Part shown: one piece after another, positions 676-59,977 of the stretch
How the letters are laid out: each line of letters opens with the position of its first letter
How positions within the stretch are numbered: the first letter of the stretch is position 1
Assembly (NCBI GenBank): GCA_001793945.1
Contig: MGIW01000006.1
Span: 70,179 to 134,178, forward strand
Origin: Candidatus Wolfebacteria bacterium RIFOXYD12_FULL_48_21
Lineage (GTDB): Bacteria > Patescibacteriota > Minisyncoccia > UBA6257 > UBA9933
Direction: 5' to 3'
DNA length: 64,000 bases
The notes under the pieces: generated by a model
Database searches by the model: none
What the model was told of the DNA's origin: nothing
The model's input: the letters and a program-made list of their open reading frames with translations, nothing else
Translations under genes and position numbers: made by a program

Positions 676-752
676 GGGACATGAGATATGAGGTGTGGGG
701 CATGAGGTATGAGATGTGAGATGTGAGGTATGAGATGTGAGGTATGAGGGGG
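676..752. repeat. Heptanucleotide tandem array, about 11 units of the ggtatga/gatgtga family, directly after a stop codon
   Basis: Read directly: gggacat gagatat gaggtgt ggggcat gaggtat gagatgt ... with 7-bp periodicity. Same unit family as the array at 27586-27682. Confidence 0.8.
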
Positions 753-18424: not shown

Positions 18425-18561
18425 TGACAATAGTATATATTTGTTTTCTAAGTTTGTCCACCCCCCCTCGTGGGATAACCGATAACCAATAACTAATAAC
18501 CTATAACGGGACAACTCTACGAGAATGAATAAAGTGTCATTTTTGTATATACTTAATACAT

Positions 18562-21898: not shown

Positions 21899-21966
21899 AT
21901 ACATGAGGCTTTTTTTGAGATGCACTACTCTCGTTCACAGTTAACAGTTCACGGTTTATAGTAACT

Positions 21967-22365: not shown

Positions 22366-24744
22366 ATGGCCACCATTTTTACCTCTATCATTATCTTTGC
22401 CATTGCACTGCTTGTCGTAGGCGGTGCCATTTTGTTTTTTATGCGGCAAAAGGAGCGCAAGGTGCGCATGAAGCAGGCGCTCGACCTGAGCCTGCTTTTA
22501 TTGCGGTTCCCGCGCATTGCGCGGGAAGAACGCGAGCGAAAAGATTTCAAGGACGAGATCAATCTTTCCGCACAGCTTTACAGCACGCTTCTTGGGCTCA
22601 AGGTACCATTTGCGCTTGAAGTTGCGGTGCATCATGTCGGCGAAGAGATCCATTTCTATGTTGGCGTGCCAAAGGGATCGATGGATCCGGTACGGCGTCA
22701 GATCGAGGGTCTTTTTGCGGAGGTACAGGTGGAGCCGATCGATGATTACAATATATTCAATGCGACTGGCGTGAGCGCCGGTGTGTATGTAAAACAGCGC
22801 TATTCCTATGCGCTGCCTATTCGTACCTATCAGGAGGCGAATGTCGACACATTTTCTTCCATCTTGAGCGGATTTTCCAAGGTCAGCGAAGTTGGCGAGG
22901 GTGCCGCATTGCAGGTGCTTGTTCGCCCTGCGCCTGAATCTTCCAAGAAATCCATTTTTAAAATGATCGGGCAACTGCGGCACGGCGAAAAGTTTGAAGA
23001 TGTTTTGCAGAGCGGCAGCGATACGCTTGCGCTTATGAAAAAGATCGCCGCCGGAGCGCCTGCCGAACAGCCGATGCCCGAGCAGCCACGCATTGTCAAC
23101 GAAGATGCCGTAAAGGCGCTTGAGTCAAAAGTAGGCAAGTCGTTGGTGCTCGCGAATGTGCGCATCGTTACTTCCGCCATCAATCCACTGCAGTCCGAAG
23201 ACTTGCTTAACGGCATCGCTTCCGGGTTCGCGCAATTTTCCGCGCCGTTTCGGCAAGAATTGCGCATTGCCAAGCCGAAGCAGCTGCAGCGTTTTTTGCG
23301 ACAATATTCGTTCCGCGAATTCGACGATGCCACTGCTATCTGCTTGAACACCGAAGAGATTGCGAGTTTGTTCCATATGCCGACGCCTTCGCTTGATGTG
23401 CCGCGCGTCAAAGCGCTTGAATCGCGCGAGGCTGCGCCGCCGGAGAATTTGCCGACCGAAGGTACGCTGATCGGAGAAAATTCGTTCCGCGGCGATGTGC
23501 GGCCTATTTATCTTACGCCGCAGGACCGCATGCGCCATGTGTATGCCATTGGGCAAACGGGTACCGGTAAATCGACACTGTTGGTGCAAATGGCGCTCGA
23601 AGACATTCGCCAAGGGAAGGGCGTGTGTATTATCGATCCGCATGGCGAATTGGTCGACAAGACCTTGAGCCTTATCCCCGAGCATCGTTATGAAGATGTG
23701 ATCGTGTTCGACCCGGCAGACATTGCATCGCCCATGGGTTTGAATATGCTTGAGTATGATTTTAGCCGACCCGAACAGAAGTCGTTTATCGTCGACGAAC
23801 TGTATGGCATCATGGACAAGTTGTACGACATGAAGACCTCGGGTGGTCCGATGTTTGAGCTGTACATGAAAAATGCAGTTCTGCTGCTTATGGAGGATGC
23901 GCCCAATGAGCCTGCGACGCTTATGGAAATCCAGCGGCTCTTTACCGACGACGCATTTCGCGAGCGCAAGCTGGCACGGATACATAATCCGGTCGTGATC
24001 GATTTTTGGGAAAAGGAGGCGGCCAAGGCAAGCGGGGAACATTCGCTTGCGAACATGTCGGCGTATATTACATCAAAGTTCAATGTGTTCACGACGAACG
24101 ATTTTATGCGGCCTATTATTGGACAGCCGCATTCGGCATTCAATTTTCGGCAAGCCATGGACGAAGGGAAAATATTGCTCATCAGCTTGTCCAAGGGCAA
24201 GATTGGCGATTTCAATATGGGATTACTCGGCATGGTCATCGTGGGTAAGATATTGATGGCCGCGTTGTCGCGCACCGATATTCCCGAAGCGGAACGCAAA
24301 GAGTTCAATTTGTATCTGGATGAGTTTCAAAACTTTACGACCGATGCCATATCGACCATATTTTCCGAAGCACGCAAATATGCGCTGAGCCTTACGGTCG
24401 CGCACCAGTATATCGGCCAAATGTCCGACAAGATCCGAACATCCGTGTTCGGCAATGTGGGTTCGAAGATTATATTGCGCGTGGGCATGGACGATGCGGA
24501 AGTGTTCGAGCGGGACCTTGTGCCGACATTTACCAAAAATGACCTTACAAACTTGAAGGCCGGACAGGCCTATGCCAAACTGTTATTGAATGGGCAGGTT
24601 ACCCGACCGTTCAACCTGCAGCTCGTCAATGTACAATGGGGCGACCGTTCGTTGGTAGAAAAATTGCGCGAGCTTTCCCGATTGAAATATGGACGAAACC
24701 GTGCGGAGGTGGAAGAGGAAATTTTACACAGGCTTAGACTATAA
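22366..24744 (+). CDS. VirD4/TraG/TraD-like coupling-protein ATPase (FtsK/HerA superfamily) with N-terminal TM
   Basis: Walker A GQTGTGKST. Walker B LYLDEFQNF. C-terminal TraD/TraG-like region. Confidence 0.6.
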   Translation: MATIFTSIIIFAIALLVVGGAILFFMRQKERKVRMKQALDLSLLLLRFPRIAREERERKDFKDEINLSAQLYSTLLGLKVPFALEVAVHHVGEEIHFYVGVPKGSMDPVRRQIEGLFAEVQVEPIDDYNIFNATGVSAGVYVKQRYSYALPIRTYQEANVDTFSSILSGFSKVSEVGEGAALQVLVRPAPESSKKSIFKMIGQLRHGEKFEDVLQSGSDTLALMKKIAAGAPAEQPMPEQPRIVNEDAVKALESKVGKSLVLANVRIVTSAINPLQSEDLLNGIASGFAQFSAPFRQELRIAKPKQLQRFLRQYSFREFDDATAICLNTEEIASLFHMPTPSLDVPRVKALESREAAPPENLPTEGTLIGENSFRGDVRPIYLTPQDRMRHVYAIGQTGTGKSTLLVQMALEDIRQGKGVCIIDPHGELVDKTLSLIPEHRYEDVIVFDPADIASPMGLNMLEYDFSRPEQKSFIVDELYGIMDKLYDMKTSGGPMFELYMKNAVLLLMEDAPNEPATLMEIQRLFTDDAFRERKLARIHNPVVIDFWEKEAAKASGEHSLANMSAYITSKFNVFTTNDFMRPIIGQPHSAFNFRQAMDEGKILLISLSKGKIGDFNMGLLGMVIVGKILMAALSRTDIPEAERKEFNLYLDEFQNFTTDAISTIFSEARKYALSLTVAHQYIGQMSDKIRTSVFGNVGSKIILRVGMDDAEVFERDLVPTFTKNDLTNLKAGQAYAKLLLNGQVTRPFNLQLVNVQWGDRSLVEKLRELSRLKYGRNRAEVEEEILHRLRL

Positions 24745-25632: not shown

Positions 25633-26418
25633 TTATGCTTTTGCGACCACAAGGGCAAATATCTTTTTTGCCCCCGCTTGTTTCAGTGTGCGCGCCGCTT
25701 CCGATAGCGTAGCGCCGGAGGTGGAAACATCGTCTATGAGAATAATGGTTTTGTTGCGAACGGCGGCGAGGCGCGGCACGGCAAATGCGCCGTGCATGCG
25801 AGCGAGGCGCGCTATGCGCTTTTTTGTTTGCGCTTGCGGGTCGTTGTCGATCAATTTTATAAGCAGTTCGTCGTAGGGGAGCTGTATCGTGCGTGCGAAT
25901 GACCGTGCAATGAGCGCCGATTGGTTGAAGCCCCGGTTGCGTTCCTTGTGCATGTGTAGGGGAATGGGAACGACGATCGGCGATGCTGAAAGCAGTCTTG
26001 GTTTCGGGTCGAGTGCGTTTATGTATTCGACAAGCAGTGTTGCAAAAACAGGAGCGAGGGAATGGACCTTTTCATACTTGCATTGGTGGATGCATGCGCG
26101 AATGATCGGGTCGGCGTAGTGCGTTGCCGCGCCGAGCAGGTAGGGATATTGGTCGCGCTTGCTTTTTCCGTGCGTGCAGATGTTTTTGTTATCTGCCATG
26201 CGGGCGTTACATATCGGGCAGATCAGGGCTGTTTGTTTGACGATTGTGGCAAGGCACATATTACATAGCGGCGCTGTTTCATCGTTTAGATATGCTTCGC
26301 AATATGCGCAGAGCGGGGGAAAGAGTATGTCGAGGGCGTATCGCGAAATACGGAATAGGAAAAAGGAAATATGTGAAAGGCCATATGCATTTGTGGTTTC
26401 TTCTGCTTCGTTTTTCAT
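25633..26418 (-). CDS. comF: ComF-family protein (phosphoribosyltransferase-like competence protein)
   Basis: N-terminal Cys clusters. C-terminal ILIDDVSTSGATL PRT motif. Confidence 0.75.
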   Translation of the reverse strand: MKNEAEETTNAYGLSHISFFLFRISRYALDILFPPLCAYCEAYLNDETAPLCNMCLATIVKQTALICPICNARMADNKNICTHGKSKRDQYPYLLGAATHYADPIIRACIHQCKYEKVHSLAPVFATLLVEYINALDPKPRLLSASPIVVPIPLHMHKERNRGFNQSALIARSFARTIQLPYDELLIKLIDNDPQAQTKKRIARLARMHGAFAVPRLAAVRNKTIILIDDVSTSGATLSEAARTLKQAGAKKIFALVVAKA

Positions 26419-26497
26419 ATTCCCTGTTTCGTTTTCCGTGCTTCTGTAGTATAGTATACGATAATAGCGTACGGAAACGTATTTTTATTGCATCATC

Positions 26498-27583
26498 ATG
26501 TTCGGAATAAAATTGTTTGGCACATCTTCATATCTTGGCGTCGATATCGGAACTACATCCATCAAAATTGCCGAGATCGGCAAGGGTGGGCATGGTCCCG
26601 AATTGCAGAACTACGGTATTTTGGAGAGCTATGGCCATTTGGAACGGGTCAATAACGCCATTCAGACGAGCGCGCTCAAGATCATGGAGGCGGACACCAT
26701 CCAGCTGTTAAAGACATTGATCAAGCATTCCAATTTTAAATCGCGCGACGCGATTGCTTCCCTACCGTCGTTCGCCGCGTTCATCACATTGTTTGAAATG
26801 CCGCAAATGAACGACGCAGATATCGCAAAGACGATGCAATTTCAGATCGGACAATATATTCCGCTTCCTCTTACCGAAGTTTCCATTGATTGGCTCAAGG
26901 TGGGCGAGCGGCAGGATGACCAAGGGTTCGTCAAGGAGCAAATATTACTCGTGTCCATACCAAATGAAACGATTGAAAAGTATCAGCGTATTTTTGCCGC
27001 CGCAGGCTTGCGGTTGCGTGCCATTGAAATAGAAAGCCTTGCGCTGTTGCGTTCAGTCTCCGATGCAAACATGCCGCCGACGATGGTCGTCGACATCGGT
27101 TCGCGATCGACGAACATCGCGGTCGTGGACAAGGGAAATCTCCGCTACAATTTTCAAACTGATATGTCAGGCGCGGGCATTACACAAGCCCTTGCTGGCG
27201 GGTTGGGAATCAAGATCCGCCGTGCGGAAAAATTGAAACGCGAGCGCGGCATCCTTGGCGGTTCCGAATCTGAACTATCCACATTGATGATGCCGTTCGT
27301 AGATGCTATACTGAATGAGGTAAAGCGCGTAAAAACAAAATACGAACAAAGCTTCGGTACCGTGGTCACGCAAGTGATCCTTGCCGGAGGCGGTTCAAAG
27401 ATGCCGGGTCTTGCTCCCTATGCGCAGGAGCAACTCGGACTTCCTATTGTGATCGCCGATCCGTTTCAAAAGATCCATTATCCTGCGGCGCTTGAACCCA
27501 TCGTGCGTGACCTCGGTCCTTCGTTTGCCATTTCCATCGGTCTCGGCATCAAGGAATTTGTCGAGGCACATCCCGCGGTCTAA
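26498..27583 (+). CDS. pilM: Type IV pilus assembly protein PilM (actin-like ATPase)
   Basis: [15 protein letters not shown] and the overall PilM architecture. Confidence 0.85.
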
Positions 27584-27585
27584 GG

Positions 27586-27780
27586 GGTGTGAGTATGGAG
27601 GCACGAGGTGTGAGATATGAGGTATGAGGTATGAGGTATGAGATATGAGGTATGAGATATGAGAATAAGATATATCTCTCGCCTCCCATCTCCCATCTCC
27701 CATCTCCCATCTCCCATCTCCCATCTCCCATCTCCCATCTCCCATCTCCCATCTCCCATCTCCCATCTCCCATCTCCCAT
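27586..27780. repeat. Heptanucleotide tandem array of about 28 units: (gtatgag-type) x14 then (ctcccat) x14
   Basis: Read directly. 7-bp periodicity is continuous from the pilM stop to the pilN ATG at 27779. Confidence 0.9.
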
Positions 27781-28327
27781 GTCGTATACCCAATCAGTTC
27801 TGCAAACAGAATTATCAAAACAGCGTGAAGCTGCAGCTGGCTGGCCATGGCGGCTGATGACATTTTCTTTTGTCGTCTTCCTCGCAGTCGCAGCTGTATA
27901 TATCGGCATGCGATTTGGCTTCGAGAAAGTTTATTTGAAGCGCGCATTGTCTCAAGAAGAGGCTGAGTTTACTTCGACCTTCAAATCGGTAAGCACGGAA
28001 GAGCAAAAGTCCGTTTTTAATTTTTATTCGCAGTTAAGCAATATTGATACCTTGTTGAAAAAACAAGGGAAAGCGACTCCCCATCTTTCATTCATTGAGC
28101 AAAATACCCTTAAGACGGTCACATATTCCGGCATGGATCTTCGATTTGCCGATCGTTCTGTCGTTATCGTTCTGAATGGCAAGACCGCGGCTTATGCGTC
28201 GGTCGTTCAGCAGCTTGAACTGTACAAACGAGTTTCGACCGTTACTGAAGTTAAATTATTGGGCGCCCGTTTTATTAGTCCGGCCGAGGGTGTTGATTTT
28301 TCCATTCAAATAACCGCAGCGCGTTGA
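27779..28327 (+). CDS. pilN: PilN-like pilus assembly protein (possible N-terminal extension to 27659 through the repeat)
   Basis: Short cytoplasmic N-terminus, one TM helix, periplasmic domain. Position between pilM and pilO. Confidence 0.6.
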
Positions 28328-28337
28328 TCCGTATCTT

Positions 28338-28922
28338 ATGAAATACCTGTCAAAACGATTCGCCAGTATTCTTCTCTCGTTTACATTTTTCGCGTTTGCG
28401 CTTGTTCTGTATGCAAACTTTATCGGGCCTGCCTATGACACCATTAAGGCAGAACAGGGCAAGCTTATTGCGGCGCGGCAAAAGAACGCTGAGTATACGA
28501 GCATTTTTACCCGCCTAAAGCAGGCATCTTCCGAATTTCAGCAGTCATCTGAAGTGCAAAACCGCGTATCCATGGCGTTGCCGCTTGCCGCAAATGTTCC
28601 CGATTCCATGAACCAGCTCTCTGTAATCGCTACGGCGAATGGATTGACCATTACTTCCATCGATATCGTAAATGCGCCAGTCGTTCCGTCCAGCGTGGGA
28701 AAGGCGGGGGAGTCTTCGTTGATCAAAGGCGTTGGTGTGCTAAAAAACTCCATTCGATTAACCGGGACATATGACCAACTGAAGTCCTTTTTGCAAGGCA
28801 TCGAAACCGGCGTACGCATCGCGAGTATTTCTTCCGTAAAAATAGACAAAATCGCAAATCCGATCACGCCCGGCACCATGGGCATAACGGTCGAAGTCGA
28901 AACATATTATCAGGTCAATTAA
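28338..28922 (+). CDS. pilO: PilO-like pilus assembly protein
   Basis: N-terminal TM plus coiled coil. Gene order pilM-N-O. Confidence 0.6.
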   Translation: MKYLSKRFASILLSFTFFAFALVLYANFIGPAYDTIKAEQGKLIAARQKNAEYTSIFTRLKQASSEFQQSSEVQNRVSMALPLAANVPDSMNQLSVIATANGLTITSIDIVNAPVVPSSVGKAGESSLIKGVGVLKNSIRLTGTYDQLKSFLQGIETGVRIASISSVKIDKIANPITPGTMGITVEVETYYQVN

Positions 28923-29373: not shown

Positions 29374-31113
29374 ATGGAAAACAAAACACTGGTTGATGCA
29401 CTAATTCAAGATGGGCTGATCGGAGAGGTGGAAGGGCGCAAGGTGTTGCAGGAAGCCGCGCTTGCGCGACGACCCGTAGATGAAATGATCTACGAACAGC
29501 GCCTTGTGGACGAAGAAAAGCTTGCCATAGCAAAGGGCAAGCTTTTGAATGTGCCTTATCGAAAGATTGATCCACAGGATATCGATGATGAAACGCTAAA
29601 GTTGTTCCCCGAAGAAAGCGTGCGGAATTACAAGATCATCCCCCTCAGCATCAAAGACGATCTGTTGGTTGCGGGTATGATCAATCCGGATGATGCGCAT
29701 GCGCAGGAGGCCTTGAAGTTCATTGCCAAACAGCGCCGATTGAATGTGGGCGCATATATCGTCACACCGTCATTGTGGGAAACCGTGTTGCGTCGCTACT
29801 CGCCCTATCGCAGCTTGATCGATGAGGCCATAAAAGCGAGCGCTTCCATCGCGGCAAAGGGTTCCGGCCCGGTGCAGACCGTTCGGCTTGAAGAAACGAA
29901 AGGCGCCAATGCCGATGAGACGCCGATTATTCGCATTGTTTCGACCACGCTCAAGGAAGCGGTTTGGGAAAAGGCGTCCGATATCCATATTGAACCACAG
30001 CGCAACCGCAGTCGCATCCGCTTTCGTATCGACGGCGAATTGCGGGAAGTCTCCGCATTTCCTTTGGTTCTGCATTCATTGATCGTATCCCGCGTCAAGA
30101 TCCTTGCGAACCTTAAGATCGACGAGTCGCGTATTCCACAGGATGGTCGTTTTCGAACCGTTTTGTTTGGCAGGGATATCGATTATCGCGTTGCTACATT
30201 TCCGACTCCGGTCGGCGAGAAGGTTGTTATTCGCGTACTTGATCCGTCCACCGGTTTGCGCGGGTTGGAAGATCTTGGGTTGCGCGGTAAGAATCTTGCT
30301 ACCGTAAAAAGTGGTATTGAAAAACCATACGGTGTCATTTTGATTACCGGCCCTACTGGCTCCGGAAAAAGCACAACGCTATATGCGTTGATGCAGTTGT
30401 TGAACAAGGACGATGTGAACATTGTCAGTCTTGAAGACCCGGTTGAATATTATATGGATGGACTGAATCAATCCCAGGTAAAGCCGGAAATCGGATACGA
30501 TTTTGCATCCGGACTGCGCCAGATATTGCGCCAAGACCCCGATGTGATCATGGTCGGTGAGGTCCGCGACGAAGAAACTGCTGCACTTACCATCCAAGCT
30601 GCACTTACCGGGCATATTGTACTTTCCACGCTGCATACCAACAATTCCGTTGGTGTCATCCCGCGTCTTATCGATATGAAGGTGCAACCGTTTTTGCTTC
30701 CTGCCGCACTTAATCTTATGCTTGCACAACGGCTTGTTACGCGGTTGTGCCAACAGTGCAAAGTGGGTGAACTTGCCCCTCCTCAAGTTGCCGAGATTAT
30801 TGCTCGCGAACTTGGCAGATTATCTGCCGATGCACGGGGGGTATATCCGGTTTCCGGCCCGTATACGGTGTATCATTCGCCGGGCTGCGAAGCATGTAAA
30901 GGAAAAGGTGTCTCGGGGCGACTCGCTGTGTTTGAAGTATTGGCCATGACTCCCGAGATGGAGCGGGTCATAAACGCCGGGGCGACCGAGTCCGCTATTC
31001 TTGAAGAAGCCCGCCGGCAAAATATAGTTACCATGCATCAAGATGGCATTCTTAAGGCACTTGAGGGGATGACATCCATAGAAGAAGTGCTTCGTGAAAC
31101 CGTGGAAATGTGA
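29374..31113 (+). CDS. pilB: Type IV pilus assembly ATPase PilB/GspE
   Basis: Walker A GPTGSGKSTTL. Tetracysteine CEACKGKG. Confidence 0.9.
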   Translation: MENKTLVDALIQDGLIGEVEGRKVLQEAALARRPVDEMIYEQRLVDEEKLAIAKGKLLNVPYRKIDPQDIDDETLKLFPEESVRNYKIIPLSIKDDLLVAGMINPDDAHAQEALKFIAKQRRLNVGAYIVTPSLWETVLRRYSPYRSLIDEAIKASASIAAKGSGPVQTVRLEETKGANADETPIIRIVSTTLKEAVWEKASDIHIEPQRNRSRIRFRIDGELREVSAFPLVLHSLIVSRVKILANLKIDESRIPQDGRFRTVLFGRDIDYRVATFPTPVGEKVVIRVLDPSTGLRGLEDLGLRGKNLATVKSGIEKPYGVILITGPTGSGKSTTLYALMQLLNKDDVNIVSLEDPVEYYMDGLNQSQVKPEIGYDFASGLRQILRQDPDVIMVGEVRDEETAALTIQAALTGHIVLSTLHTNNSVGVIPRLIDMKVQPFLLPAALNLMLAQRLVTRLCQQCKVGELAPPQVAEIIARELGRLSADARGVYPVSGPYTVYHSPGCEACKGKGVSGRLAVFEVLAMTPEMERVINAGATESAILEEARRQNIVTMHQDGILKALEGMTSIEEVLRETVEM

Positions 31114-31224
31114 TAAAATACATGCAACAAGCGACATGTAACATGTAACAAGGGAATGCGGTTATAGTACACCATTTCACTTATATTCCATGTCTCAGTA
31201 ACTAGTAAACATTCATCCCTTTCT

Positions 31225-32298
31225 ATGGACTACAAACAACAGCTAAATGACCTTTTGCTTTCAACGGCAAAACAAAACGCATCCGACCTGCACATCGGTG
31301 TCGGCAAATATCCCATGTTGCGCATCGATGGGTTGTTGATCCCGTTGCAAAAAGAGGGCATCGTTACACCCGAGGTCGCAACTGGTCTTGTTACCGAGTT
31401 GCTGACTCCCCAACAACGCGCGGTTGTTGAGAAAAACCGCGAAGTCGATTTTTCTTATACCTATGAAGATAAGGCGCGTTTTCGTATTAATGTATTCTAT
31501 CAGCGCGGATATATGGCTGCAGCATTGCGTTTGATCCCGGCGGAGGCTCGCACTATAGAAGATCTTGGTTTGCCGCCGATCTTGCACGATTTTACCAAAC
31601 TGTCGCAAGGATTCTTTTTGATTGTGGGCCCTGCCGGCCATGGCAAGTCGACTACGCTTGCTGCACTTGTCGACGAGATCAACCATACTCGCACGGAACA
31701 TATTATCACCATTGAAGATCCTGTCGAATATATGTTTGTGCAGGATAAGTCCATCGTTTCGCAACGCGAAGTGCTGAGCGATACGCCCGATTTTCACATG
31801 GCATTGAAGTCGCTTTTGCGTCAGGATCCGGACATTGTCATGATTGGAGAAATGCGCGACAAGGAATCCATCGCTACCGCCATGACGGCCGCGGAAACCG
31901 GACACCTTGTCTTTTCCACACTGCATACCAATTCGGCCGCACAGACTATTGATCGTATTATTGATAGCTTTCCGCCTGATCAGCAAAACCAGGTCGCTTC
32001 GCAGCTTGCCGCCACATTGGTCGGCATCGTTTCTCAGCGGTTGATCCCGCATGTCGATGGCGGCCGCGTTCCCGCGTGCGAAATCATGATCGTCAATTCC
32101 GCCATCCGCAACTTGATCCGTGAGCGCAAGGCGTACCAAATCGACTTGGTCATTGAAACATCCATGCAAGAGGGTATGGTCACGCTGAACCGATCGCTTG
32201 CTACGCTGGTTCGCAGTCGGCAGATCGCACTCGAAGAGGCGGAGTTGTACTCGTTGAATGCGAGTGAGCTGCGCATATTGATCGAAAGGGTGTCGTAG
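31225..32298 (+). CDS. pilT: Twitching motility ATPase PilT
   Basis: GPAGHGKSTTLAA and the PilT-type IITIEDPVEY. Confidence 0.9.
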   Translation: MDYKQQLNDLLLSTAKQNASDLHIGVGKYPMLRIDGLLIPLQKEGIVTPEVATGLVTELLTPQQRAVVEKNREVDFSYTYEDKARFRINVFYQRGYMAAALRLIPAEARTIEDLGLPPILHDFTKLSQGFFLIVGPAGHGKSTTLAALVDEINHTRTEHIITIEDPVEYMFVQDKSIVSQREVLSDTPDFHMALKSLLRQDPDIVMIGEMRDKESIATAMTAAETGHLVFSTLHTNSAAQTIDRIIDSFPPDQQNQVASQLAATLVGIVSQRLIPHVDGGRVPACEIMIVNSAIRNLIRERKAYQIDLVIETSMQEGMVTLNRSLATLVRSRQIALEEAELYSLNASELRILIERVS

Positions 32299-32302
32299 GG
32301 TT

Positions 32303-32378
32303 GTGTCATTCTGAACTTGTTTCAGAATCCCCCCTATTTGTACATGAGATTCCGAAACAAGTTCGGAATGACAATAAG
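32303..32378. repeat. Palindromic MITE-like element
   Basis: gtcattctgaacttgtttcagaatc ... gattccgaaacaagttcggaatgac. Confidence 0.7.
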
Positions 32379-32390
32379 ATATGTTTATCC

Positions 32391-33605
32391 ATGAAATTCA
32401 AATACCAAGCACGCAATAAGGATGGGGAACTGCAAGTCGGGTTCGTGGAATCATATTCGCAGGCGGGCGCTGCGGATGTTTTGGTTTCCCATAGTCTGTA
32501 TGTCCTTAGTCTTGAAAGTACGGATAAGGAAAATATTTTTGACAAATTTCTTGCCGCGTTCAAGCATATTTCACTAACCGATCTCATGATCTTTACGCGT
32601 CAATTTGCGACGCTCATGGAGGCAAAGGTTTCCCTTGGTGATTCCATGAAGAACCTGCAAAAGCAGACGCGTAGCCCGATGATGAAAGAAGTGATCCATG
32701 AGATCACATCCGACATCGACAGCGGTCTTGCCCTGTCACAGGCGTTTGAACGACAAAAGGATGTATTTTCGGAATTTTATGTCAGCATGATCCGGTCTGC
32801 CGAGATAACGGGGCGTTTGGAAGAAGCCGTTATTTATTTGGCCGCCTATATCGAAAAGCAAAAACTGTGGCGCTCTCGCATCATTAACGCGCTTATTTAT
32901 CCAATCATTTTAGTTGTCATGTTCTTGGGCATCGTGTTGCTTATGGTAACCATGGTCTTGCCGAACATTCGGCCGATCTTGCTTGAATCGGGCACCGCAT
33001 TGCCGTGGTATACGCAGGCTGTTTTGGTTGGGGGCGATTTCATCATCAACTGGTGGTGGGTCGTGATTCTTGCCGTCGTACCTTTGGTCATGTTCATTTT
33101 GGAATATGCCCGCAGTGAAGAGGGTAAGGTGGTTATCGACGAAGTGGTATTGCGCATGCCCGTGTTCGGAAACCTTTTTGCGAAAATGTACATTGCCCGG
33201 TTTGCGGAATCGTTGAGCATCTTGATCCAAGGAGGTATTCCTATCGCGCAAGCATTGGAGATCACTTCTCGATCGATTGGCAGTAATGTGTTCCATGAGA
33301 TATTGCACGAGGTCAGCGATCGGGTTCGCGGAGGCGAGCTGCTTTCCACTGCATTGGAGCAGTACGAATTTTACTTTCCTTCGTTGGTCAGTCAGATGAT
33401 CGCCATCGGCGAAACTACGGGGCGGCTCGATGAACTGCTCGGCCGCGTTGGTATATTCTACACGCGGGAGGTCGACGACATCATGGGTCGGCTTGGCGAG
33501 CTTATCCAGCCGCTCATCATCGCCATTATCGGTGTCTTTGTCGGATTCCTATTTGCATCCATACTCGTTCCGATATATAATTTAGTAAAGTCATTCAGTG
33601 CATAA
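32391..33605 (+). CDS. pilC: Type IV pilus inner-membrane platform protein PilC (GspF family)
   Basis: Two T2SSF repeats and three TM helices. Confidence 0.9.
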   Translation: MKFKYQARNKDGELQVGFVESYSQAGAADVLVSHSLYVLSLESTDKENIFDKFLAAFKHISLTDLMIFTRQFATLMEAKVSLGDSMKNLQKQTRSPMMKEVIHEITSDIDSGLALSQAFERQKDVFSEFYVSMIRSAEITGRLEEAVIYLAAYIEKQKLWRSRIINALIYPIILVVMFLGIVLLMVTMVLPNIRPILLESGTALPWYTQAVLVGGDFIINWWWVVILAVVPLVMFILEYARSEEGKVVIDEVVLRMPVFGNLFAKMYIARFAESLSILIQGGIPIAQALEITSRSIGSNVFHEILHEVSDRVRGGELLSTALEQYEFYFPSLVSQMIAIGETTGRLDELLGRVGIFYTREVDDIMGRLGELIQPLIIAIIGVFVGFLFASILVPIYNLVKSFSA

Positions 33606-35539: not shown

Positions 35540-36145
35540 ATGGAAGGATTCAACAGAAAGGCATTCGACGAAATGGTGGGCAAGGCACAAGAAGAGGCAT
35601 TAAAAGACAATGCCAAACTTGATAGCGCAAATGCGCTGATCAAAGAGATCAAGGGAGAAAAGGAAATTGCCGAGTCGAAAGAGCAATTCGAAACTTGGCA
35701 AACAATCGAATCTGGAGGGAAGTCAAAGGACGAGCTCATAAAAGAGCTTGAAGAAAAAGGAAGACTAATTGGCGCCGACGCCAACCATCTTCTTAAAAGT
35801 GAAGATTTCAAGACCTCCGAATCAAGGGAACATATTGATCTCGTAAGGCCGACCGTTAAAGATCTCGGGTTTGATAATGGTGCCACTACTGAAGAAATAT
35901 ACGCAAGAGCCGATGAATTGGGGTTGGATCTCTGTGAAGCTGAAGATGCTCCCAACTTAAGGGTCCAATATGATGGGACAGAAGGCATGGCGATCGCCAT
36001 GAAGCAGATTACCGGCTCTGGTGGCTTCCCGAGTGTGTTCTACCTGAGCAGCGATGACGACGACCTGTGGCTCGGCACGAACGGTGCGCGTCCCGGCATC
36101 AGGTGGAATGCTGACAATCGCTTTGTCTTCCGTCGGCGCAAGTAA
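35540..36145 (+). CDS. DGR target protein with a C-terminal variable region
   Basis: AAAGGAG Shine-Dalgarno. The C-terminal 45 aa is encoded by the VR. The tail reads DDDLWLGTNGARPGIRWNADNRFVFRRRK, which is CLec-fold-like. Confidence 0.8.
   Translation: MEGFNRKAFDEMVGKAQEEALKDNAKLDSANALIKEIKGEKEIAESKEQFETWQTIESGGKSKDELIKELEEKGRLIGADANHLLKSEDFKTSESREHIDLVRPTVKDLGFDNGATTEEIYARADELGLDLCEAEDAPNLRVQYDGTEGMAIAMKQITGSGGFPSVFYLSSDDDDLWLGTNGARPGIRWNADNRFVFRRRK
36008..36142 (+). repeat. DGR variable repeat (VR)
   Basis: 135-bp copy of the TR with 14 substitutions, all at TR adenines. Confidence 0.85.
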
Positions 36146-36208
36146 CTCTTGTGGACTTGTGCGCCTGTTATCTATTTGGGCACTTGGTCCCTTTGTTCCC
36201 TTGCATTT

Positions 36209-36233
36209 AAATCCCGCGCTTTGCGCGGGATTT
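36209..36233 (+). terminator. Perfect 11-bp-stem hairpin downstream of the VR and target stop
   Basis: aaatcccgcgc ttt gcgcgggattt. Confidence 0.45.
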
Positions 36234-36498
36234 GTATTATGGTACGATGATTGCGGTAGTAGGCTAATGATCCAATGCGGGCGATCAAGGTTTCCCGCGG
36301 CCGAATCCGGTATCCATGCGTCGAGAGTGCCTTCGTCCTCCGGCTGGCGGATTGAGACAGGGTGGCGCATGCAGAAACTCCATCAAAAATGAAGATACTT
36401 GGTATAAGATATTGGAGGAGTCTTGCTCCCAAATACTATACAGCCTTGAGTTTGCCAGCAAGCGATCGAGGGGCGGTGGAACGGATGATATCTTATAC

Positions 36499-36633
36499 AT
36501 TACCGACTCTGATGGCAACCCGAATGTGTTCAACCTGAACAGCAATGACGACGACCTGTGGCTCGACACGAACAATGCGCGTCCCGACAACAGGTGGAAT
36601 GCTGACAATCGCTTTGTCTTCCGTCGGCGCAAA
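36499..36633 (+). repeat. DGR template repeat (TR)
   Basis: Adenine-containing master copy, with AAC/AAT codons in the target frame. Embedded in a non-functional-looking ORF, 36316-36834. Confidence 0.85.
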
Positions 36634-36638
36634 CCTCT

Positions 36639-36953
36639 TTATTTCTCCTCCGGACTTGCGCCGGAGGAGTTTTTCTTTTCAATCTGGTGTTGCCACCCGC
36701 CGAGCATCTTGCCGATCTCATCTACGCATTTTGAAAGCGCAATGTATTTCTTACTATCAAGAACATTTATTTCCCACGCAAAGCGGAAAAAAAATTTTAG
36801 TTCGTCTATCTTGGCCCCGGCTTTTTGTAGGTGAGGCAATTTGAGTGCCTCTTTTTTCCAGCTGGCGGTAAACAGAAGTCCTGCCGTTTCGATAATAAGG
36901 CCGTCGATTTTTGTCCCCAATGTATAGCGTGAAGTTTTCGGGAATAGCTTCAC
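36639..36953 (-). CDS. avd: Avd-like accessory variability determinant (four-helix-bundle / 23S IVS protein family)
   Basis: FPKTSRYTLGTKIDGLIIETAGLLFTA and SKKYIALSKCVDEIGKMLGGW match the Avd/IVS pattern FPK.E.Y.L..QI.RAA.SI..NIAEG ... E.GKML. The ORF may extend upstream to about 37010 with a non-ATG start. Confidence 0.7.
   Translation of the reverse strand: MKLFPKTSRYTLGTKIDGLIIETAGLLFTASWKKEALKLPHLQKAGAKIDELKFFFRFAWEINVLDSKKYIALSKCVDEIGKMLGGWQHQIEKKNSSGASPEEK
36645..36679 (+). terminator. Plus-strand intrinsic terminator immediately 3' of the TR
   Basis: ctcctccgg acttgcg ccggaggag tttttctttt. Confidence 0.6.
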
Positions 36954-37013
36954 ATATTCTTGCCAGAGTTTGTACAGTGTGATAGTTTTGCTAATAATTG
37001 TTAAATTATTAGC

Positions 37014-37033
37014 GGGGGGGGGTAATTTTTTTT
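37014..37033. repeat. Homopolymeric G9 tract followed by a T8 tract in the avd-RT intergenic region
   Basis: agcgggggggggtaattttttttg, read directly. Confidence 0.8.
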
Positions 37034-37042
37034 GTTATTATT

Positions 37043-38071
37043 ATGAATGTCAAATTGAGTCATATATTTGAAGAGATAATTTCCGTCGATAATCTTTTGT
37101 TTGCATGGAAGGAATTCGAAAAGGGCAAGAAAAACAAAATCGATGTTTTAAAATTTTCGGAACGACTGATGGATAACATCTTATCATTGCATTACGATTT
37201 GGCAAGCAGAACATATGCGCATGGCGGGTATAAGGCATTTAAAATAAGCGATCCGAAGCCCCGCGATATCCATAAAGCGAGTGTGCTGGACAGATTGCTC
37301 CATCACGCCATATATAGAGTCGCATACCCCTATTTTGACAGGAAGTTCATCTGCGATTCTTATTCCTGCCGGAACGGGAAAGGAACACACAAAGCCATGA
37401 GTCGCTTTAAGCAATATCACAATGAAGTTTCCAAAAATAACACAAGAACCTGCTGGGTATTGAAATGTGACATTAGAAAGTTTTTTGCCAATATCGACCA
37501 TCAAATACTGAGGGATATTTTAGAAAAACATATAGAGGATGAGGATTTGATGTGGCTATTGGGAGAGGTTGTCGGGAGTTTTAATACCGAAGGGAAGACG
37601 GGCAAAGGGCTTCCGCTCGGGAACCTTACATCTCAGCTCTTAGTGAATATATACATGAATGAATTTGATCAGTATATGAAGCATGTATTGAAAGTAAAAT
37701 GGTATATCCGATATGCTGATGATTTTTGCATGCTATCTGGGAATAAAAAAGAATTGGAACAATTGTTGTCCCAAACAGGTGACATTCTGAAAGGAAAGCT
37801 GGAACTGGAGCTCCATCCCGATAAGGTTTCCATAAAAACATTTTCTTCCGGAGTTGATTTTCTTGGGTGGGTGCATTTCCCGGCTTATAGCGTCTTGCGA
37901 ACTTCCACCAAAAGGAGAATGATGGAAAGAATAAGAAAGCGCTTAAATGATGAAACGGTGGGTTCGTATTTGGGAATGCTGAAGCACGGGAACGGGCATT
38001 TAATACGCGAAGAAATAGTATCAATACAAAATGGCGCAAGCGGTTGGATACCCTCTGCCAATAAGGTATAA
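37043..38071 (+). CDS. DGR reverse transcriptase
   Basis: RT motifs present. PLGNLTSQ is the DGR-specific (I/L)GxxxSQ. YADDF active site. Confidence 0.9.
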   Translation: MNVKLSHIFEEIISVDNLLFAWKEFEKGKKNKIDVLKFSERLMDNILSLHYDLASRTYAHGGYKAFKISDPKPRDIHKASVLDRLLHHAIYRVAYPYFDRKFICDSYSCRNGKGTHKAMSRFKQYHNEVSKNNTRTCWVLKCDIRKFFANIDHQILRDILEKHIEDEDLMWLLGEVVGSFNTEGKTGKGLPLGNLTSQLLVNIYMNEFDQYMKHVLKVKWYIRYADDFCMLSGNKKELEQLLSQTGDILKGKLELELHPDKVSIKTFSSGVDFLGWVHFPAYSVLRTSTKRRMMERIRKRLNDETVGSYLGMLKHGNGHLIREEIVSIQNGASGWIPSANKV

Positions 38072-39846: not shown

Positions 39847-39961
39847 TAGGATGGTTCACGGTTGACGGCTCATAGTTTACGGGCGGAAGCAGTTGGTGCA
39901 TTTAGTCGACTGTGAACCGTAAACTGTTAATGGTTATCGAAGAATAAACAGTCTAAATACA

Positions 39962-57470: not shown

Positions 57471-57577
57471 GCGCGAATCAAGAAGCATGAATCATGAATA
57501 ATGAATGAATGCGGATGAGATTCTTGACATATTCCTTACCATAATTCATTATTCAGTATTCATAACTCATATACAGT

Positions 57578-59884: not shown

Positions 59885-59977
59885 AATAATGACCTATAAC
59901 TTATAACCGATAACTGATTACAGGATACAGCATTCTGATGTGGATGTATTTTGTCAAAAGTCATCCGTTGTTTGTTA

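Follow-up and report, generated by a model that had tools for sequence, protein, structure and literature searches.

What is the role of a long tandem array of heptanucleotide repeats that fills the space between two genes for type IV pilus assembly? This question is raised by a 64-kb stretch of contig MGIW01000006.1 (hereafter the window) from Candidatus Wolfebacteria bacterium RIFOXYD12_FULL_48_21, an uncultivated groundwater bacterium of the Candidate Phyla Radiation (CPR; Patescibacteria). In the window, pilM, pilN, and pilO lie in this order in a type IV pilus cluster on one strand, with pilB, pilT, and pilC nearby. The 195-nt spacer from the pilM stop codon to the pilN start codon (positions 27584-27778) has a lag-7 identity of 0.81. 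An initial annotation, made from the sequence alone, had regarded the array as a potential phase-variation switch of pilN. I performed a computational analysis of the spacer, the window, and related loci. In summary, I found that the spacer carries two heptamer arrays facing each other as an inverted pair, and that the number of units in one of them differs among assemblies of the same organism. On balance, the element is best read as an inverted heptamer pair in a presumably transcribed spacer; if its unit number has an effect, this is probably a quantitative tuning and not a frame-shifting switch.

Two facing heptamer arrays and a predicted hairpin

As listed in Table 1, the spacer is composed of a left arm of degenerate purine-rich units, a short AU-rich stretch, and a right arm of perfect CTCCCAT units (AUCUCCC in RNA). 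The left-arm units are, in order, GGGGTGT, GAGTATG, GAGGCAC, GAGGTGT, GAGATAT, GAGGTAT (three times), GAGATAT, GAGGTAT, GAGATAT, and GAGAATA; about eight of them are close to GAGGTAT or GAGATAT, and the arm contains many 5-codon ATG...TGA mini open reading frames (ORFs). Tandem Repeats Finder reported the right arm (27683-27780) as period 7 with 14.0 copies, 100% matches, and a score of 196, and the left side (27586-27663 and 27611-27673) as degenerate repeats of period 7, 14, or 21 with 86-93% matches. The pilN ATG takes its AT from the final unit of the right arm. The initial annotation had counted about 28 strictly periodic units from the pilM stop codon to the pilN start codon. The count is accurate (197 nt = 28 × 7 + 1), but the periodicity is not strict, as the left units are degenerate and the 7-nt register shifts by 1 nt at position 27682. 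In the window, CTCCCATCTCCCAT with up to two mismatches has 14 occurrences where 0.38 would be expected; GAGGTATGAGRTAT has 13 (0.43 expected), all of them at the pilM-pilN locus and at positions 683-745.

It was revealed that the left and right arrays are imperfect reverse complements of each other, because GAGGU or GAGAU pairs with AUCUC. This feature had gone unremarked in the initial annotation. The spacer is predicted to fold as one long hairpin of -70.7 kcal/mol, a value reached by none of 200 dinucleotide shuffles. The predicted hairpin has 5-bp helices every 7 nt, with 2x2 internal loops between them. At its tip, GAGATAT (27654-27660) would pair with ATATCTC (27672-27678) around an AU-rich loop, and its base would cover both the pilM stop codon and the pilN start codon. 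The opposite strand of the spacer folds about equally well. 

Does the predicted fold depend on the number of units? I folded an in-silico series with 1-24 CTCCCAT units. The minimum free energy reached a plateau from about 8 units and was constant at -107.8 kcal/mol over 10-24 units. The paired probability of the start region (-15 to +12) went from about 0.8 at 8 or fewer units to about 0.35 at 12 or more units. Shine-Dalgarno motifs are nearly absent in the window: at about 9 of the 72 starts, the duplex with the anti-Shine-Dalgarno sequence reaches -6 kcal/mol or better, and the upstream regions of the genes are mostly AU-rich. With so few Shine-Dalgarno-like matches, the accessibility of the start site should matter. 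It was also considered whether the GAGGT units of the left arm are themselves Shine-Dalgarno sites. This was rejected, as the genome hardly uses such sites.

These predictions suggest how the element may work. Unit-number changes would arise by slipped-strand mispairing. On the pilM-pilN transcript, the two arms would pair over about 10 units in a long imperfect hairpin, and units past the first 10 or so would remain single-stranded as a CU-rich leader right before the pilN AUG. The unit number may then tune quantitatively the translation of PilN, or the processing of the transcript, relative to PilM, in a manner like that of the hmw1A/hmw2A 5′ untranslated region (5′-UTR) described below. Any regulatory effect of the unit number is an inference. 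Such a role is plausible, and neutrality is its main and strong rival.

The number of CTCCCAT units differs among near-identical assemblies

Is the unit number fixed? Assemblies of the same organism were recovered via exact-protein look-ups, and the units were counted in short-read consensus assemblies. The window allele has 14 units, and so has a contig with 100% identical flanks (L215). Another contig (L213), with one single-nucleotide polymorphism (SNP) in 3.4 kb, has 16 units. Eleven units were found in a contig with a patch of pilM SNPs (L214) and in a JGI contig (L007) with one pilM SNP and a 2-nt gap, which overlap the SNP patch of L214. The contigs that begin or end within the array give lower bounds: at least 15.7 units where the contig begins within the array (L216), and at least 13.4 (L003) and at least 12.3 units (L002) where it ends there. 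In one more assembly (L001), the array length is hidden by a 100-N scaffold gap. Taken together, unit numbers of 11, 11, 14, 14, 16, and at least 15.7 occur among assemblies whose flanks are 99.2-100% identical. The perfect CTCCCAT tract thus varies from 11 to 16 units, in line with the gain or loss of units considered in the initial annotation, while no difference in the degenerate left arm was seen between assemblies of the species. The comparison of strains, which had been proposed as a check, did not yield a fixed number in all relatives.

Most assemblies break within the array, so that 24 contigs contain PilM but only 7 contain a full-length PilN. The array is carried by more than 10 independent assemblies from different samples and assemblers, and thus it is not an artefact. 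CTCCCAT arrays are also present at this site in two other lineages. In L009 (89% PilM identity), 4 left units and 11 right CTCCCAT units are followed by ATATTCCC before the ATG; in L212 (88% nucleotide identity), 11 CTCCCAT units are followed by ATTTCC. With these two included, all eight alleles seen have at least 11 units, in a small sample in which 11 is possibly an assembly collapse value. Since the alleles behave in this way and the element resembles hmw, quantitative tuning is favoured over an ON/OFF switch.

The sole substitution in 3.4 kb of the 16-unit contig is T27660C, by which ATG 27659 becomes ACG and the closing pair of the apical stem is lost; this is a single case whose import was recognised only post hoc. 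A metagenome scan for the spacer-array junction AAGATATATCTCTCGCCTCCCATCTCCCAT gave no match, and the scanned collection evidently lacks the organism, as the JGI contig contains the junction.

The pilN start codon and the upstream ATG codons

Can the gain or loss of a unit switch pilN in or out of frame? The initial annotation pointed to an upstream ATG at 27659 that reads through the CTCCCAT units in frame with pilN. Indeed, the CTCCCAT tract is stop-free in every frame, and ATG 27659 is in frame with pilN at 11 or 14 units (reading MRIRYISR(LPSPISH)n...MSYTQS), as is ATG 27652 at 13 or 16 units. However, such an ATG is not conserved: in L212 both open upstream ATGs, at -100 and -107, are out of frame. 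In L009, it is a GTG that shares the frame of pilN. As there are two open upstream ATGs, an in-frame extension is expected by chance in two of the three unit-number classes.

The PilN homologues of dozens of relatives begin at the residue matching ATG 27779 (M-P/S-Y-T-Q-S; tblastn). The start context ATG CCN TAY ACN CAA TC is conserved, and the sequence 5′ of the start is unrelated between relatives. One array-free relative (L089) has an in-frame stop codon 15 nt 5′ of the pilN start, and in most other species with arrays at this site, the heptamer carries stop codons in all frames. A gene-call look-up for the 222-aa extended PilN found none on record. Slippage cannot alter the frame of ATG 27779, because the sequence CCCAT before the G of the start codon is restored by the last unit in every case. 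Since this conserved ATG is regenerated at any unit number, the proposed frame switch of pilN by unit gain or loss is not supported.

The initial annotation had also proposed that unit number may alter the spacing between a promoter and the start codon. A consensus scan of 26300-28400 found neither a promoter nor a terminator within the pilM-pilN spacer, and thus there is no such spacing to alter. An Rfam search of the spacer found no family; it gave microRNA-like hairpin matches below the thresholds alone (17-22 bits, versus gathering scores of 73-137). Among the traits of a contingency locus, a long and perfect slippable tract is present (98 nt, 100%), but it lies neither inside an ORF nor between promoter elements. 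ON/OFF switching of pilN by the array is therefore unlikely.

Heptamer periodicity in spacers of the lineage

Is this architecture limited to the pilM-pilN spacer? I analyzed 241 intergenic spacers from the window and 80 related pilus-centred loci, with a lag-7 identity of at least 0.45 as the threshold. This threshold was reached by 12.4% of the spacers, compared with 0-4.6% at other lags and 7.9% at the 14-nt harmonic. In coding sequences the fraction was 0.4% at the lag-7 threshold, and in an Escherichia coli control none of 35. In the window itself, lag 7 was the best lag in 8 of 37 spacers, and the 7-periodic ones include those of nusG-rplK, scpA/M23-peptidase, and pilB-pilT (Table 1). 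Thus the array is not a contingency device peculiar to the pilus, as similar arrays flank housekeeping nusG-rplK and scpA. Likewise, a pilus-specific element was rejected on the basis of the regions sampled, in which the nusG-rplK and scpA spacers share the architecture.

The inverted arrangement is also found beyond Wolfebacteria. In distant Paceibacteria, the pilM-pilN spacer often has other heptamers as facing arrays, such as AATTTCT/AATTAGA (L039), TTTTAGC/CTAACAG (L023), GCGTATA/CGCTNAN (L068), AAAATGG/TTCAACA (L072), and AAAATCA/CATTTTA (L022). Facing pairs also lie 5′ of pilM, after pilO, and between pilB and pilT. When the left unit was compared with the reverse-complemented right unit in 26 neighbouring array pairs, 5.15 of 7 positions agreed, in contrast to 3.31 in direct comparison and 3.94 in cross-locus controls. 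In many species, the left arm starts within about 10 nt of the stop codon and the right arm finishes within about 10 nt of the start codon.

The unit families of the six other 7-periodic spacers of the window in Table 1 are GAATCAT, TAACYGA, GGTTCAC, ACATGTA, GTTCACA, and GATAACC, several of them as inverted arms. Some genomes reuse one heptamer family across the spacers of the pilus operon: GAATATG/TTCCAAA at +1214 and +3449 in L012, CTAACAC at two sites in L019, and a further case in L023. The pilB-pilT pair of L009, ATGAATT/TCATAAT, resembles the nusG-rplK units of the window. Such reuse between spacers hints at inter-spacer copying or convergent seeding. A metagenome scan for three GAGRTRT units matched at least 120 unrelated contigs, with 34-68% GC among the matches listed; such arrays are hence widespread, but the scan yielded nothing on the present species. 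GAGGTAT/GAGATGT-type arrays were seen in metagenome contigs L128, L129, L100/L140, L164, L126, and L156; some have perfectly inverted partners, and others lie beside CCCAGTA arrays like the short tandemly repeated repetitive (STRR) sequences of cyanobacteria.

Weighing of the explanations

The strongest rival to quantitative tuning is that the arrays are a neutral by-product, a slippage filler tolerated in the spacer, with the inversion produced not by selection but by mutational processes, for example template switching on hairpins. Several results weigh against a function. The array was sought in the closest relatives, L089 (91% PilM identity), L090 (87%), L091 (85%), L010, and L011, and none was found; they have ordinary spacers of about 50-100 nt. 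Thus the element is not required for the expression of pilN, and the array is recent and dispensable. It is apparently turned over quickly, and the start-flanking sequences of array-free relatives (...ATACCCATG and ...ATTCCCATG) seem to resemble a seed of the CTCCCAT unit. The predicted accessibility of the start shifts little over the observed 11-16 units (paired probability 0.43 to 0.32). In periodic spacers the sense strand has no advantage in folding (mean dG+ minus dG- = -0.36 kcal/mol), nor do these spacers exceed non-periodic ones in structure, by z-scores that come from mononucleotide shuffles and are hence liberal; selection at the RNA level is thus not demonstrated. The allele series may also be shorter than it appears, as de Bruijn graph reasoning of my own predicts that an array of period 7 whose length exceeds k is reduced to ceil(k/7) units, so that artefacts of k = 77 may underlie the 11-unit alleles. 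Neutrality is further in keeping with the similar arrays beside housekeeping genes, with the different units among species and spacers, and with the literature, in which the heptamer excess of many bacteria is put down to polymerase slippage. What neutrality explains less well is that the arrays of many species are tightly bounded by the upstream stop codon and the downstream start codon, that their inverted complementarity exceeds the controls, and that the eight alleles, a small sample, all lie at or above the saturation of the hairpin. I regard the neutral explanation as a real possibility, if less probable than quantitative tuning.

The other explanations are harder to reconcile with the data. 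Under the switch of the initial annotation, translation would start at ATG 27659 or 27652, and the unit number would yield either an extended PilN or an out-of-frame upstream ORF that occludes the pilN start. The frames are suggestive, since ATG 27659 shares the pilN frame in the 14- and 11-unit alleles and, in the 16-unit allele, ATG 27652 is in frame while the sole SNP destroys ATG 27659; the in-frame GTG of L009 and the stop-free tract point the same way. But the expected share of chance agreement is high and L212 does not conform; moreover, PilN is conserved from residue 1-2 in all relatives, array-free relatives have in-frame stop codons just 5′ of it, most arrays of other species at this site carry stop codons in every frame, and no gene call of the 222-aa product was found on record, which makes the switch improbable. 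Could the hairpin instead join the pilM stop codon to the pilN start codon, so that a terminating ribosome melts the base, frees the AUG, and couples the synthesis of PilM and PilN? The base of the predicted hairpin covers both codons, the arms of many species begin and end close to such codons, and the genome is short of Shine-Dalgarno motifs. Nevertheless, at 11 or more units the fold already predicts little pairing for the units next to the AUG, relatives manage without the array, and similar arrays occur in divergent promoter regions 5′ of pilM, where coupling is impossible; I consider coupling quite improbable. At the DNA level, the complementary strand of the right arm reads (ATGGGAG)14, i.e., G3-N4 fourteen times, which is a canonical quadruplex motif by sequence. 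A G-quadruplex of the template-strand (GGGAGAT)14 might hinder the passage of RNA polymerase from pilM to pilN or make the array unstable, as with the GGGNATC repeats of Xanthomonas and Nostoc. The strand does contain four or more G3 tracts, with loops no longer than 7 nt, and the position fits a published bias (PMC4692102), but the unit is outside the GGGNATC/GGGGAYT consensus and the other Paceibacteria arrays at this site are AT-rich and incapable of forming quadruplexes, so that a quadruplex role is very improbable. Finally, the array or its length variation might have been made by the assemblers. The 100-N gap of L001, the many contigs that end in the array, and the coincidence of 11 units (77 nt) with the collapse value that my reasoning gives for k = 77 would suit an artefact. 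On the other side, the array recurs with identical flanks in independently assembled samples and the 11-unit contigs have strain-specific pilM SNPs. Under the default k lists of metaSPAdes and MEGAHIT, neither 14 nor 16 units is expected as a collapse value, and thus at least two alleles are credible. An artefact is the least probable explanation of all and hardly to be believed. I therefore retain the reading of an inverted heptamer pair with, at most, a tuning effect.

Genomic context of the array

The coordinates of the arrays and the surrounding genes are collected in Table 1. The search for pilM homologues gave 795 sequences, the best-named of which is a Candidatus Wolfebacteria PilM. A Pfam search of the pilN product gave no match, and the gene is syntenic and homologous across the 80 loci. 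A prepilin peptidase gene and several pilin-like genes lie farther along the cluster. Directly 5′ of pilM are genes for a VirD4/TrwB-like coupling ATPase (792 aa, 22366-24744) and a ComF-like phosphoribosyltransferase (25633-26418). The presence of these two genes, in an order kept in relatives, suggests a DNA-uptake or transfer context for the pilus cluster.

Table 1. Coordinates of the heptamer arrays, codons, genes, and periodic spacers in the window
Feature	Position	Strand	Description
Left arm	27584-27667	+	12 degenerate purine-rich heptamers: GGGGTGT, then 11 GAGNNNN units (27591-27667)
AU-rich stretch	27668-27682	+	15 nt, non-repeat, AGATATATCTCTCGC; reads AGATATA, TCTCTCG, and an extra C (27682)
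Right arm	27683-27780	+	14 perfect CTCCCAT units, 98 nt
Upstream ATGs	27652 and 27659 (27652-27661)	+	frames stay open through the CTCCCAT array
pilM	26498-27583	+	361 aa; Pfam PilM_2, E = 1.7e-39; TAA stop codon (27581-27583) directly before the left array
pilN	27779-28327	+	182 aa; assigned from position and homology
pilO	28338-28922	+	Pfam PilO, 1.3e-8
pilB	29374-31113	+	Pfam T2SSE
pilT	31225-32298	+	Pfam T2SSE
pilC	32301-33605	+	Pfam T2SSF
Second array of related units	676-752	+	about 10 ATGAGGT/ATGAGAT units; 5′ of a type IV pilin gene (1014-1448)
nusG-rplK spacer	57471-57577	+	GAATCAT units facing ATTCAGT/ATTCATA; lag-7 identity 0.52
Other 7-periodic spacer	59885-59977		
Other 7-periodic spacer	39847-39961		
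Other 7-periodic spacer	31114-31224		
Other 7-periodic spacer	21899-21966		
Other 7-periodic spacer	18475-18507		

The initial annotation had noted that the unit family recurs near the start of the window, directly after a TAAGGG stop as at pilM, and this was confirmed from the sequence. Repeat finding placed this second array at 681-749 with 9.9 copies and 75% matches. It has no CTCCCAT partner arm. The product of the downstream pilin gene has a Pfam N_methyl motif. Between the second array and this gene, a 65-nt element is present in two copies (769-833 and 870-934; 97% identical), and the region 1449-1900 holds more short repeats as well as hairpin-like elements.

A diversity-generating retroelement (35540-38071) is located within the pilus gene cluster, with the prepilin peptidase gene and pilin-like genes on its flanks. 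Its reverse transcriptase gene (37043-38071) matches Pfam RVT_1 (1.2e-22). The 134-nt repeat pair consists of a variable copy (36008-36141) at the 3′ end of an ORF (35540-36145) and a template copy (36499-36632). At every mismatch the template has an adenine, which is the hallmark of diversity-generating retroelements.

Wider meaning

What would the arrays mean for the lineage? In Paceibacteria and Wolfebacteria, the paired inverted arrays that run from a stop codon to the next start codon might represent lineage-wide intercistronic RNA hairpins, serving as RNase III sites or start-site masks. Their length would be set by slippage, and they would form a mutational rheostat of operon stoichiometry. 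I consider this broad reading rather unlikely. If it is true, the arrays would be a general rheostat for genomes poor in regulators and Shine-Dalgarno sites, and the pilM-pilN array would be their most expanded and most variable example, tuning the pili for host attachment. Type IV pili are central to the epibiotic life of cultivated Patescibacteria (PMC12206443). Patescibacteria have few conventional regulators, and a hypervariable repeat in a pilus operon would be a cheap means to generate cell-to-cell variation in piliation.

Among the 12 top-listed of 92 papers from a full-text literature search, which are no proof of absence, no link of simple-sequence repeats or phase variation with Patescibacteria was found. 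Nor did I find a prior description of what appears to be a paired inverted heptamer arrangement across a CPR lineage. The pattern extends to CPR the heptamer excess that has long been noted in bacteria without being explained, and it offers many natural replicates for tests at the RNA level. There is also a practical side, as the array fragments metagenome assemblies (see the contig counts of PilM and full-length PilN above) and corrupts annotation. Gene callers are misled by the array, through which stop-free minus-strand ORFs (27395-27947) encoding (MGDGRWE)n are called, and PilN is annotated in several public records as 156 aa from an internal Met (P0123, hypothetical protein, RIFOXYD1_FULL_48_65 and RIFOXYD12_FULL_48_21).

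Comparison with known repeat systems

The tracts of classical phase variation, such as the poly-G of Neisseria pilC, the CTCTT repeats of opa, and the TA repeats of Haemophilus influenzae hif, lie in an ORF or between the -35 and -10 elements, where one unit flips expression. The pilM-pilN element shares with them a perfect tract at a surface-organelle locus and a slippage-type change of number. In contrast, its tract is outside the canonical ORF, in a spacer with no promoter consensus. Repetitive extragenic palindrome (REP) and bacterial interspersed mosaic element (BIME) hairpins are imperfect palindromes located between co-transcribed genes, where they can make mRNA stability differ from one gene to the next. 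The pilM-pilN element is also an imperfect palindrome between genes of the same operon. However, REPs are dispersed copies of one conserved sequence and have neither a 7-nt periodicity nor a hypervariable unit number.

The pilM-pilN element belongs to the known class of slippage-prone intergenic heptanucleotide repeats, since 7-nt periodicity is common in the sampled spacers of the lineage. Tandem copies, a non-coding site, an excess of period 7 at many loci, and differences in unit number were all found. Two studies describe heptamers as the long simple-sequence repeats that abound most in the majority of genomes and ascribe their over-representation in many bacteria to polymerase slippage (PMC4679880, PMC4692102). 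The STRR sequences, the long simple-sequence repeats (LSSRs; Mrazek et al. 2007), and the GGGNATC repeats (PMC4692102) share with the present arrays a 7-nt unit, a site between co-oriented genes, an occurrence at many loci, and extensive length variation in close relatives. Inverted pairs are also seen occasionally among such repeats. The G-rich heptamers have a positional bias: in the 50 bp that follow a stop codon they are found on the sense strand, and in the 50 bp 5′ of an ORF on the antisense strand (PMC4692102). The G-rich strand of the pilM-pilN arrays obeys this rule. On the other hand, the unit here is GGGAGAT, which differs from the consensus GGGNATC or GGGGA(C/T)T, and in this lineage the unit tends to differ from spacer to spacer, typically in inverted pairs of arrays that are mostly AT-rich and lack G-quadruplex potential.

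The TAACTGA repeats of marine Beggiatoaceae, for which a post-transcriptional role is a proposal (PMC4679880), resemble the present arrays in several respects. The heptamers lie right before start codons, Shine-Dalgarno sites are few, and essential and non-essential genes are affected alike. But in Beggiatoaceae a single unit serves the whole genome, each site has 2-6 copies, and a partner arm is lacking, whereas here there are many unit families, up to at least 16 copies, and inverted partners.

The hairpin of the hmw1A/hmw2A 5′-UTR of H. influenzae is the closest mechanistic analogue of the pilM-pilN element. In that 5′-UTR, (AUCUUUC)n pairs with a G-rich arm, and always 10 repeats are in the hairpin (PMC12721329; PMC8262952). 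No natural allele has fewer than 11 repeats, the stem is processed by RNase III, and added repeats lower expression (PMC12721329). There are clear differences. The present element is intercistronic, not in a 5′-UTR behind a promoter; its G-rich arm is a degenerate heptamer array 5′ of the repeat, while that of hmw lies 3′; its array abuts the start codon in a CPR host, with no sequence homology to hmw; and RNase III cleavage and a dependence of expression on repeat number are known for hmw alone. Nevertheless, both have a pyrimidine-rich 7-nt repeat (ATCTCCC here and ATCTTTC in hmw, in one rotation) just 5′ of a gene for a surface structure. In both, the unit number varies between isolates; the lower bound of 11 known for the natural hmw alleles is matched by the eight alleles seen here, a small sample in which 11 may be a collapse value. 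Finally, in both the repeat and its G-rich arm form a long imperfect hairpin of about 10 repeats whatever the total, as known for hmw and as predicted here, with the surplus repeats left outside.

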